From: Mobula hypostoma
Taxonomy: Eukaryota
Assembly: GCF_963921235.1 (NCBI RefSeq)
Contig: NC_086108.1
Coordinates: forward strand, 6,262,001 to 6,326,000
DNA length: 64,000 nucleotides
Direction of reading: 5' to 3'
Under the pieces are notes generated by a model. The model saw only the letters and a program-made list of their open reading frames with translations. It was not told the origin of the DNA and did not search any database. Shown here piece after piece: positions 1,322-3,427 of this stretch (positions within the stretch are counted from its first letter, which is position 1; each line of letters opens with the position of its first letter). The position numbers and the translations under genes are program-made.

Positions 1322-1890
1322 CGGTCTTCCGGTTTGGTCGCCAGCCACTGGACCATGGTTTTCGGTCAGGCGCCGGATGCTTGGAGACATTTGGTGGGGG
1401 GCGGTCGGCCGGGGGCCGTGGTCGAGTGGTCGGCGACTTGGGCCAACTCCCCCACTGGACTTAGTTTGGTGAGGAGGGTGTGAGGACACCCAGCAGGACT
1501 GAAAAAACAAGACCTGACAAAGGGTGGATGAGCTCCTTGTGAGCCAACGGCCATCTTCCGTGGAAGAGATTAAAGCCTCACCACATATCTGCGAATCGTA
1601 TGCTATGCACCTAATTAGAAGAGATATGATGAACTTGGGCGCTGCATCGTGTGCCTGGACCTACCCAAGGCCTCCGCCTAAGGAAGGGCCGAGCTCGAAG
1701 AAGCGGCCGCGGCTGGAGGCCGACACGGCCTCGGGCGCGAGTTCGGCAGGGGCGGCGATGGGCAGTGCCAAGGCGGCCAGCGAGAACAAACTGGAGGAGA
1801 GGCTGTACTCGGTGCTGTCCAAAGATGAAAGAAGATGGAGGTGCATAGCTGCCACCCCGGATTCAGTATGGCACCCACTGACTGACTGAC
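1322..1890 (+). mobile_element. Non-autonomous RTE-derived SINE-like retroposon inserted in the Gypsy integrase
   Basis: 11-bp target duplication TGTCTCCCTTT (1311-1321, 1891-1901); (ACTG)n 3' tail; RTE-like C-terminal remnant IRRDMMNLG...KDERRWRCIAA; GC-rich head. Confidence 0.7.
1641..1818 (+). pseudogene. CYHR1: Captured, circularly permuted fragment of the CYHR1/ZFTRAF1 N-terminal coding exon
   Basis: Joining 1677-1818 to 1641-1676 gives in-frame [59 protein letters not shown], matching the recalled CYHR1 motif [22 protein letters not shown]. Confidence 0.75.
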
Positions 1891-3427
1891 TGTCTCCCTT
1901 TGAATGCCAGAAGGGAGTCCAGCCCCCCATTTTCCCTGATCAGGAGATTGATGTAGAAGTTCCTGCTGCTGAACAGCTGATTCAGCGCTATAAGTGCAAA
2001 TGGAGACGAGCCAGGGCTTCTCTGCTGCAAGCCCAGAAACAGCATTCCCAGCAGACTGATCTACTCCGTCGACAGGTATGGCCATTCAAACCAGGAGAGG
2101 AGGTCTGGTTGACAGCAAGGGATTTTCCCCTGAAAGTCAAGAGCCACACATTGGCACGGTGCTACGTGGGACCGTTTGTGGTGGAAAAGGCTGTCAACAA
2201 GGTGTCGTATAGATTATGTCTACTAGTATCGCTAAAGATCCACCAGTATTCCATGTTTCCCAGCTCAAGCCAGTTACTATCTCTCCCCCAGCCGCAGTCA
2301 CCCCATCTCCCCCTCCTCCCTGCTTGGTAGATGGTTCCTTGGTCCATACGGTGCGGCACCTCCTGGCATCTCGCTGTGTGCATGGCATGGTCCAGAAGAA
2401 CGTACTTGGATCCCAGTGAAGGACACCTTGGACAAGTCGCTCATTCAGGACTTCCAGCGGACAGAGGTCTGTGGCGCCTCAGCGGCTTTGTCTAGAGAGG
2501 AGGGCCCTGTTACAAACATGGATTCAGCAGTGCAGCAGATACAACGATTGCGCTTGTGAATATGCATATGTCAGCTAATTATTATTAAATTGTGATACTA
2601 TTTAACTCCATTCTTTTCATCGTAGTGCTTGTTGAGACTTGAGCAAAGCACAGCAATGTTTCGCTGCCTGTTGCATTCAGCCTTGCCTGAGAAATTGGAC
2701 TGTCGAGTCGACTGACTCTGAAGACTAGCAGTATTCGTTTATATTTAGCTATTCCTTTAAGCTGGAGTGTTGGCTTTGTGTTCCATTTGAGAATTTTAGT
2801 TAACGGTCCTCTTTGGCCTAGTGTTTATTGTTTTTTTTCCCTCTAAGTGTTCGCATTAAAGTCTGTGAACTATCGACACGCTTCAGTGTCTCTCGCCCCA
2901 CTCTTGGGTGATATCGGAATGGAGTGACAGGTTTCAGTTAGATGCTCCCTCATTCTTCTAAACACCAATGAGTACAGGCCGGAGCCATCAAACAGGCTGC
3001 ATACATTATCATTTCATTTTCTCTTCCTTAGGTCGGCAACTTGCTGAGTCATCACGGACATTTTGGGCTTCCAATCTATATAACTCTAGGATACTATGGA
3101 TAATCCAACAATCCCAGGATCTAGGACGAGGAAATCAGCTAAAATTCATTCAGTGGAGTTGGATCACTGTACAAAACAAAACTGTCACCACACTAAACCC
3201 CGGACTCAATCTCCATTCCCATTAACGATTCTAACAGGATCAGAATCGGGTTTAATGTCACAGACGTACGTTGTGAAATTTGTTGTTCTGTGGCAGCAGC
3301 ACAGAGCAGGAGTCACAGTGCGGGCAGTTATAAACTGGCCTTAAACTTGCTGGTGGCATTTTCTCCAGTTACCCAGAACACAGATTAAACTATCAAACTG
3401 GCATCTCTTTGATAAAGCAAACACAAT

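Follow-up and report, generated by a model that had tools for sequence, protein, structure and literature searches.

A circularly permuted host exon inside a non-autonomous family of RTE-type LINE derivatives in Mobula hypostoma

Non-autonomous retroelements can be assembled from the two ends of one parent LINE. Such a layout, with both ends of a single LINE, a deleted interior and no small-RNA head, is described for the bipartite RTE derivatives Bov-A, RTESINE1/2, WALLSI3 and MAR4_MD (Kojima 2018, PMC5786205, in excerpt) and for the R2 SIDEs (PMC3414825, in excerpt), whose LINE tail, target duplications and 5′ truncation recur in the family reported here. Further sequence can be joined on during LINE reverse transcription: template jumps of non-LTR reverse transcriptases (RTs) to cellular RNAs occur in vivo according to the excerpted text of PMC3414825, and double template jumps yield tripartite LINE chimeras, in which three pieces are fused between target duplications (Gogvadze et al. 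2007, PMC2104539, in excerpt). Non-colinear exon order, retrotransposition and the lack of poly(A), all found here, characterize the circRNA-derived pseudogenes, of which the circRFWD2 group counts 33 high-confidence copies; RT passing across a structured linear RNA can mimic them (Dong et al. 2016, PMC4897178, in excerpt). At the DNA level, eccDNA-mediated duplications show swapped donor segments, as in the present case (Takahashi and Innan 2020, PMC7188851, in excerpt), and microDNA resembles the insert discussed below in size, GC content and CpG-island origin (PMC9527254, in excerpt). Finally, LTR elements edited by APOBEC carry clusters of one substitution type (G>A) in a known direction, fixed by reverse transcription (PMC4866542 and PMC2873906, in excerpt), and a comparable cluster of another type is found here.

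The window, that is, the whole stretch of DNA analysed, comprises 64,000 nucleotides of the Mobula hypostoma genome (assembly GCF_963921235.1, contig NC_086108.1, positions 6,262,001 to 6,326,000); coordinates refer to its forward (+) strand unless stated otherwise. Positions 1641–1818 are an exact rotation of 178 bp from exon 1 of zftraf1 (cyhr1). A sequence-only reading of the window had proposed that this segment is the footprint of an integrated DNA circle inside a SINE-like, RTE-derived retroposon.

Anatomy of the element and its family

The element is near-full-length and occupies 1322–1890, bounded by an identical 11-bp target-site duplication at 1311–1321 and 1891–1901; the extent shared with 29 other loci is about 1326–1892. 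It represents both ends of an RTE-type LINE of about 3.3 kb, as the sequence-only reading had recognized in naming an RTE-derived host, and what the insert has displaced is 2901 bp of LINE interior (as measured in locus L105) rather than part of a 3′ remnant. Upstream of the insert, a hairpin head (1329–1446) is followed at 1447–1640 by the rest of the LINE 5′ UTR and the first codons of the open reading frame, which align to 14 LINE 5′ ends with three substitutions; relative to the consensus of these 14 ends, the family has deletions of 98 nt, in the head, and of 7 and 10 nt, in 1447–1640. Downstream, 1819–1890 contains the last LINE codons, the stop and an (ACTG)n tail, and the same tail is found in five LINE 3′ ends (L034, L039, L044, L049 and L058). 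Together with L105 and L112, which contain both LINE ends, these loci show that the element's tail is the tail of the LINE that supplied its 5′ part, and five of the 30 loci retrieved with the tail run upstream into RT-coding sequence and not into the insert.

Open stretches of the parent LINE encode endonuclease and RT domains within the 3.3 kb, and its full-length relatives are about 1000 aa long, three of them labelled craniofacial development protein 2. This domain layout and this label, which we take to mark RTE, lead us to call the parent RTE-type, a provisional call based on these features. The element has neither endonuclease nor RT of its own. No Rfam match near the gathering score was obtained for the head in the two copies searched, and a host-gene origin of the head was rejected after no match was found in about 125 kb around zftraf1. 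A strict SINE was likewise rejected, the head being an inverted duplication of LINE 5′ UTR and not a tRNA, 7SL or 5S sequence carrying a Pol III promoter; we class the element instead among the bipartite, non-autonomous derivatives of LINEs.

The two LINE ends are predicted to pair with each other through an 11-bp long-range helix, formed by 1602–1612 and its perfect complement at 1839–1849, so that the outer junctions of the insert lie 28 nt (left) and 20 nt (right) from it. The pair probability in the consensus is 0.93–1.0, and 5 of 200 shuffles reach such a helix. The helix exists in the parent LINE with one G-U pair and is fully Watson–Crick in 76 of 98 family copies, and it could serve RTE mobility as a cis element.

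The window site is one ordinary copy of a non-autonomous family of about 570 bp, with at least 434 copies in the genome and probably 650–1000. A pattern across the LINE–insert junction gave 425 exact matches on both strands and none in the reversed control, and a variant junction pattern gave nine more, all nine with the insert. The value of about 650 is a low estimate, derived from the recovery of 65 of 98 sampled copies by the junction pattern; own-genome searches returned between 954 and 1141 first-look candidates, with LINE-derived queries also catching LINEs. All 30 loci retrieved with the head query were family members. The 98 sampled copies are distinct loci spanning insert and tail, from which LINEs and heavily truncated loci were filtered out, and close copies are over-represented in the sample. 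All 98 share the three junctions of the insert, indicating a single origin and capture before amplification, as had been anticipated; other copies do carry the insert, and no insert-free form was seen among the matches. Divergence from the consensus is 3.1% at non-CpG sites (1.3–6.9%) and 18.6% at CpG sites. The copies are variably truncated at the 5′ end, with a fixed 3′ tail ending in (ACTG)n, and 41 of the 98 are flanked by target duplications of at least 7 bp, compared with a mean of 2.8 copies (maximum 7) in 200 shuffled pairings.

Intermediates were sought in the same genome. All nine matches bearing the family's 10-nt deletion keep the insert, so that no insert-free or LINE-continuing form was found within a search that forms lacking the deletion would escape, and a search for copies with one to six extra bases at the circle junction found none. 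Two organisms, A and B, have the family head in their public runs. Run X23 gave no contigs with the family and run X21, of which about 1% was read, gave 13 reads of the LINE-like part only, neither result proving absence; the sole run labelled as possible RNA was flagged as probably DNA. No description of the family came up among the papers listed by literature searches outside Repbase and Dfam, and it may already be deposited in repeat databases.

Several further observations concern individual loci and neighbouring repeats. Loci L181 and L182 (G000:C12) lie about 100 kb apart on opposite strands with an identical small deletion at the insert start and equal identity to the consensus, and probably arose by local duplication. 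Later deletions inside the insert are present in L094, L123 and L146, and L140 has an insertion of about 840 bp. At 16 of 30 loci (L148, L150–L153, L156, L158–L161, L163, L168–L170, L174 and L176, around 1440–1800), a core of about 170 nt of LINE 5′ UTR at about 80% identity is joined to another 5′ end and another continuation; this second family is probably another RTE-type element or derivative. The window copy sits in a decayed Ty3/Gypsy-like remnant (1890–2930), with a Pfam SH3_Tf2-1 match in the open stretch 1890–2327 (E = 8e-08), followed by frameshifts and stops; an LTR may be present at about 2508–2928, judged by eye only. A different repeat, in two copies that are 82% alike, borders this Gypsy-like region at 401–846 and 2979–3420.

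The rotated exon, the 5′ hairpin and the chimeric frame

The insert consists of two pieces of zftraf1 exon 1 in swapped order. Piece A (1681–1818, 138 bp) matches native exon 1 at G000:C5:228091183-228091046 with 95% identity, and piece B (1641–1680, 40 bp) matches the adjoining 40 bp (228091045-228091006) with 92.5% identity, close to the exon's 3′ end. The pieces are thus contiguous in the native gene, whose own order is normal, and the proposed circular permutation of a 178-bp exon segment stands. When all 178 rotations of the native segment were tried, one fitted the 98-copy consensus with differences at 3 of 178 sites, the runner-up having 103 mismatches; the window copy differs from the correct rotation at 10 sites. 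At the point where the exon was opened, no base is lost and none doubled, and the three junctions of the insert are all blunt. The new junction, placed by the sequence-only reading at 1676/1677 (TCCG|CCTAAG), is moved to 1680|1681 because three further bases match the native exon past one substitution, and it falls 4 nt before the splice donor of exon 1.

The assignment to CYHR1/ZFTRAF1 is supported by the 47-aa translation of 1677–1817, which matches ZFTRAF1/CYHR1 of three batoids, Pristis, Leucoraja and Amblyraja (3 matches among 79 candidates). An isoleucine read in the encoded motif is private to a few copies, the native residue being Thr (CTVC). The insert has 71% GC and its donor lies inside a CpG island of about 600–700 bp; it runs in the sense direction of the LINE as well as of the mRNA and contains coding exon only. 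Exon 1 is located about 91 kb upstream of exon 2, for which there is a single match in the 3.48-Gb genome.

In the head of the element, the first 55 nt repeat LINE 5′ UTR in reverse complement, forming a hairpin of about 50 bp (fold z = −8.07 in copy L134, reached by 0 of 200 shuffles). The 5′ arm (1329–1382) is an inverted duplication that spans the 98-nt deletion junction, and the duplication must therefore be later than the deletion. The loop and 3′ arm (1383–1446; the window copy has lost about 11 nt of the arm) show a substitution bias relative to the LINE: 13 of 19 LINE As have become G, compared with 0 of 56 in the next 190 nt (Fisher p = 2.1e-10). One of the 13 sites is confounded with CpG, probably through CpG decay in the LINE consensus, and without it the count is 12 of 18. 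Since T still stands opposite the changed As, the 5′ arm was copied before the A>G change. The 5′ arm has three firm A>G changes of its own; a fourth mirrors the CpG site, and a further three differences are of other types. A duplex with sense-strand A>G changes on both arms bears the signature of ADAR. The cluster is likely to be RNA editing fixed in the DNA of the founder, with ADAR the likely enzyme, as judged from the pattern of substitutions and in keeping with the signature as given in the excerpted text of PMC2873906. Among 30 of the 33 matches to the LINE-type motif, none had the 98-nt deletion, so that an unedited intermediate was not found in this set. Nor did an ADAR-edited LINE founder come up among the papers listed by the literature searches.

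A 93-codon frame (1605–1886) that starts at a LINE AUG, crosses the insert and finishes at the LINE stop is open in both the consensus and the window copy, and it keeps the basic ZFTRAF1 motif KKRPR in its native frame. Such a frame through the insert is expected by chance in one of three frames. In 85 copies it is open in 33, frameshifted in 38 and interrupted by stops in 14, and the nonsynonymous/synonymous rate, uncorrected and from a sample biased to close copies, is 0.69 (transitions) and 0.84 (transversions). No clear selection on the frame was seen in these 85 copies.

Route of capture

With moderate confidence, we favour a single capture of the insert from exon-1 RNA through template jumping by the LINE RT. 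For the template itself, divided here by judgement, a nicked or looped linear RNA is quite possible and a circular RNA is the more doubtful candidate. In the suggested course of events, the LINE RT would copy the last ~70 nt of the LINE RNA and then jump to exon-1 RNA nicked at a hairpin loop, which could have been a small circle or a pair of fragments kept together by the hairpin. One full turn would be copied, across the junction beside the splice donor, up to a halt at the nick, and the RT would then jump back to the LINE 5′ region, kept near by the 11-bp helix. In the same founder lineage, the 98-nt deletion and then a fold-back duplication would have created the 5′ hairpin, ADAR would have edited it, reverse transcription would have fixed the edits, and the LINE machinery would have spread the element in trans. 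Here the RNA template, the nick, the role of ADAR and the timing of capture relative to the hairpin are what we infer; the sequences themselves show the anatomy, the single origin, the marks of retrotransposition and the A>G cluster with its direction.

An exact rotation requires a circle, or two fragments of one cut that were held together. Several features point to RNA: the insert is in sense orientation and wholly exonic, it ends 4 nt from the donor, it opens in a hairpin loop, and a helix lies beside its outer junctions. The exon was opened midway along the 6-nt loop of a hairpin with six perfect closing pairs, one of two such hairpins in the 178 nt, and in the linear exon RNA this point is predicted to be unpaired with a probability of 0.89 (rank 13 of 177 bonds). 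The founder also bears other marks expected of events at an RNA stage. However, the choice of the donor, loop and helix tests was post hoc, made with the data in view, and each is modest; the position of the helix beside the junctions may reflect its retention for mobility; and editing reports the founder's passage through RNA, not the insert's route of entry. The stem of the opening hairpin has a probability of 0.18 in a 178-nt RNA circle, where it mostly fails, and of 0.67 in a 180-nt circle, and the same hairpin forms in a single-stranded DNA circle (0.75, rank 4 of 177). Folding did not bring the circle ends close in the linear exon (rank 178 of 292), and pairing of the insert start with the insert end in the element RNA has a probability of 0.01. 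Clean back-splicing predicts two more junction bases, which are carried by none of the copies, and the would-be acceptor has a weak context with 40% pyrimidines upstream; a later 2-nt deletion in the founder could possibly account for the missing bases. No single test decisively separates an RNA from a DNA origin, and for the R2 SIDEs DNA recombination is the preferred origin in the excerpted text of PMC3414825.

The integrated DNA circle put forward by the sequence-only reading is consistent with the rotation, whereas the positional clues and the marks in the founder lean towards the RNA template that the same reading had listed as its alternative. According to this rival account, the zftraf1 CpG island gave rise to a nucleosome-sized microDNA that, after a single opening, was joined by ligation into a genomic LINE at a 2.9-kb deletion or was copied as single-stranded DNA, and the product founded the family. 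An exact rotation would be the default result of opening a circle, and the length of 178 bp, the 71% GC and the CpG-island location fit the reviewed properties of microDNA (100–400 bp; 5′ UTRs, exons and CpG islands; PMC9527254, in excerpt). Circle-mediated duplications are reported at the kilobase scale, with smaller ones predicted (PMC7188851, in excerpt), and the single-stranded form would retain the hairpin at the opening point. Yet a double-stranded circle offers no reason for a cut at the loop apex, and chance would have to account for the end near the donor (about 9 of 440 positions, by a rough count), for the sense orientation and for the exclusively exonic content. Microhomology at the circle junction, suggested as a check, is absent from the flanks when the segment is read as 178 bp, even though the excerpted text of PMC9527254 says that microDNA levels are MMEJ-dependent; a 3-nt repeat at the circle ends appears only if two bases were later lost. 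We regard the DNA circle as rather unlikely. Two adjacent DNA fragments around one break in exon 1 could also have been end-joined in swapped order into a broken LINE, with neither circle nor RT jump. End joining permits three blunt junctions such as these, but the process would need three cuts, the same orientation of both fragments and a shared cut at which nothing was lost, and we consider this improbable. An assembly artefact, a chance match or a private insertion at the window site has a negligible chance of being correct: hundreds of copies in the genome, with 425 exact junction matches on both strands compared with none in the reversed control, the target duplications and the presence of the head in public runs of two organisms refute all three.

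Returning to the favoured capture from RNA, a more specific and tentative version, which we hold to be doubtful, is that the RTE RT copied a tiny first-exon circular RNA exactly once to make the retroposon core, that ADAR hyper-edited the hairpin, with edits possibly favoured for weakening the duplex, and that the frame was kept because its translation helps mobility.

Significance and comparison with known systems

The interest lies in the founder, with its exact single turn of a host exon and its probable frozen record of editing, the window locus itself being ordinary. The founder provides a base-exact germline record of the entry of a circular or looped host sequence of about 180 nt into a genome. 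If the source was DNA, the insert would represent a microDNA that reintegrated and became heritable, at a size far below that of the circle-mediated duplications described in the excerpted text of PMC7188851; if it was RNA, a LINE would have written in an RNA circle or a nicked RNA. Should the reading with an RNA circle and editing be true, the germline would have recorded, and then multiplied, two transient states of RNA. As the fixed A>G cluster suggests, ADAR can influence the sequence from which a non-LTR family is founded. Since one genome contains the parent LINE together with the donor exon and hundreds of copies, the founder is reconstructable and testable. In practice, annotation of zftraf1 exon 1 and the mapping of reads to it will be misled by the copies, which can also look like a back-splice.

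The family fits the bipartite non-autonomous RTE elements, with the clade placed from features other than a tree. Compared with those elements and the R2 SIDEs as described in the excerpts of PMC5786205 and PMC3414825, it has a rotated host coding exon as its interior, an inverted-duplication 5′ end with fixed A>G changes and an open frame from LINE AUG to LINE stop, none of which is mentioned in those excerpts. The junction of a circRNA-derived pseudogene is an exact exon–exon back-splice (PMC4897178, in excerpt), whereas the junction here is internal to one exon; judged by an exact join of donor to upstream acceptor, the insert falls two bases short of the predicted product. It also differs from the pseudogenes in that excerpt in comprising exactly one turn and in being carried by a LINE derivative with hundreds of copies. 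The eccDNA-mediated duplications reported in the excerpted text of PMC7188851 measure 20–130 kb and are not amplified by a retrotransposon, and the present insert is only putatively derived from DNA. The tripartite chimeras are single copies of colinear pieces (PMC2104539, in excerpt), whereas here four pieces, one of them rotated, became a family. Compared with the APOBEC-edited LTR elements (PMC4866542 and PMC2873906, in excerpt), the changes here are sense-strand A>G of the ADAR type within a double-stranded hairpin, made in the founder of a non-LTR family and inherited by its members.
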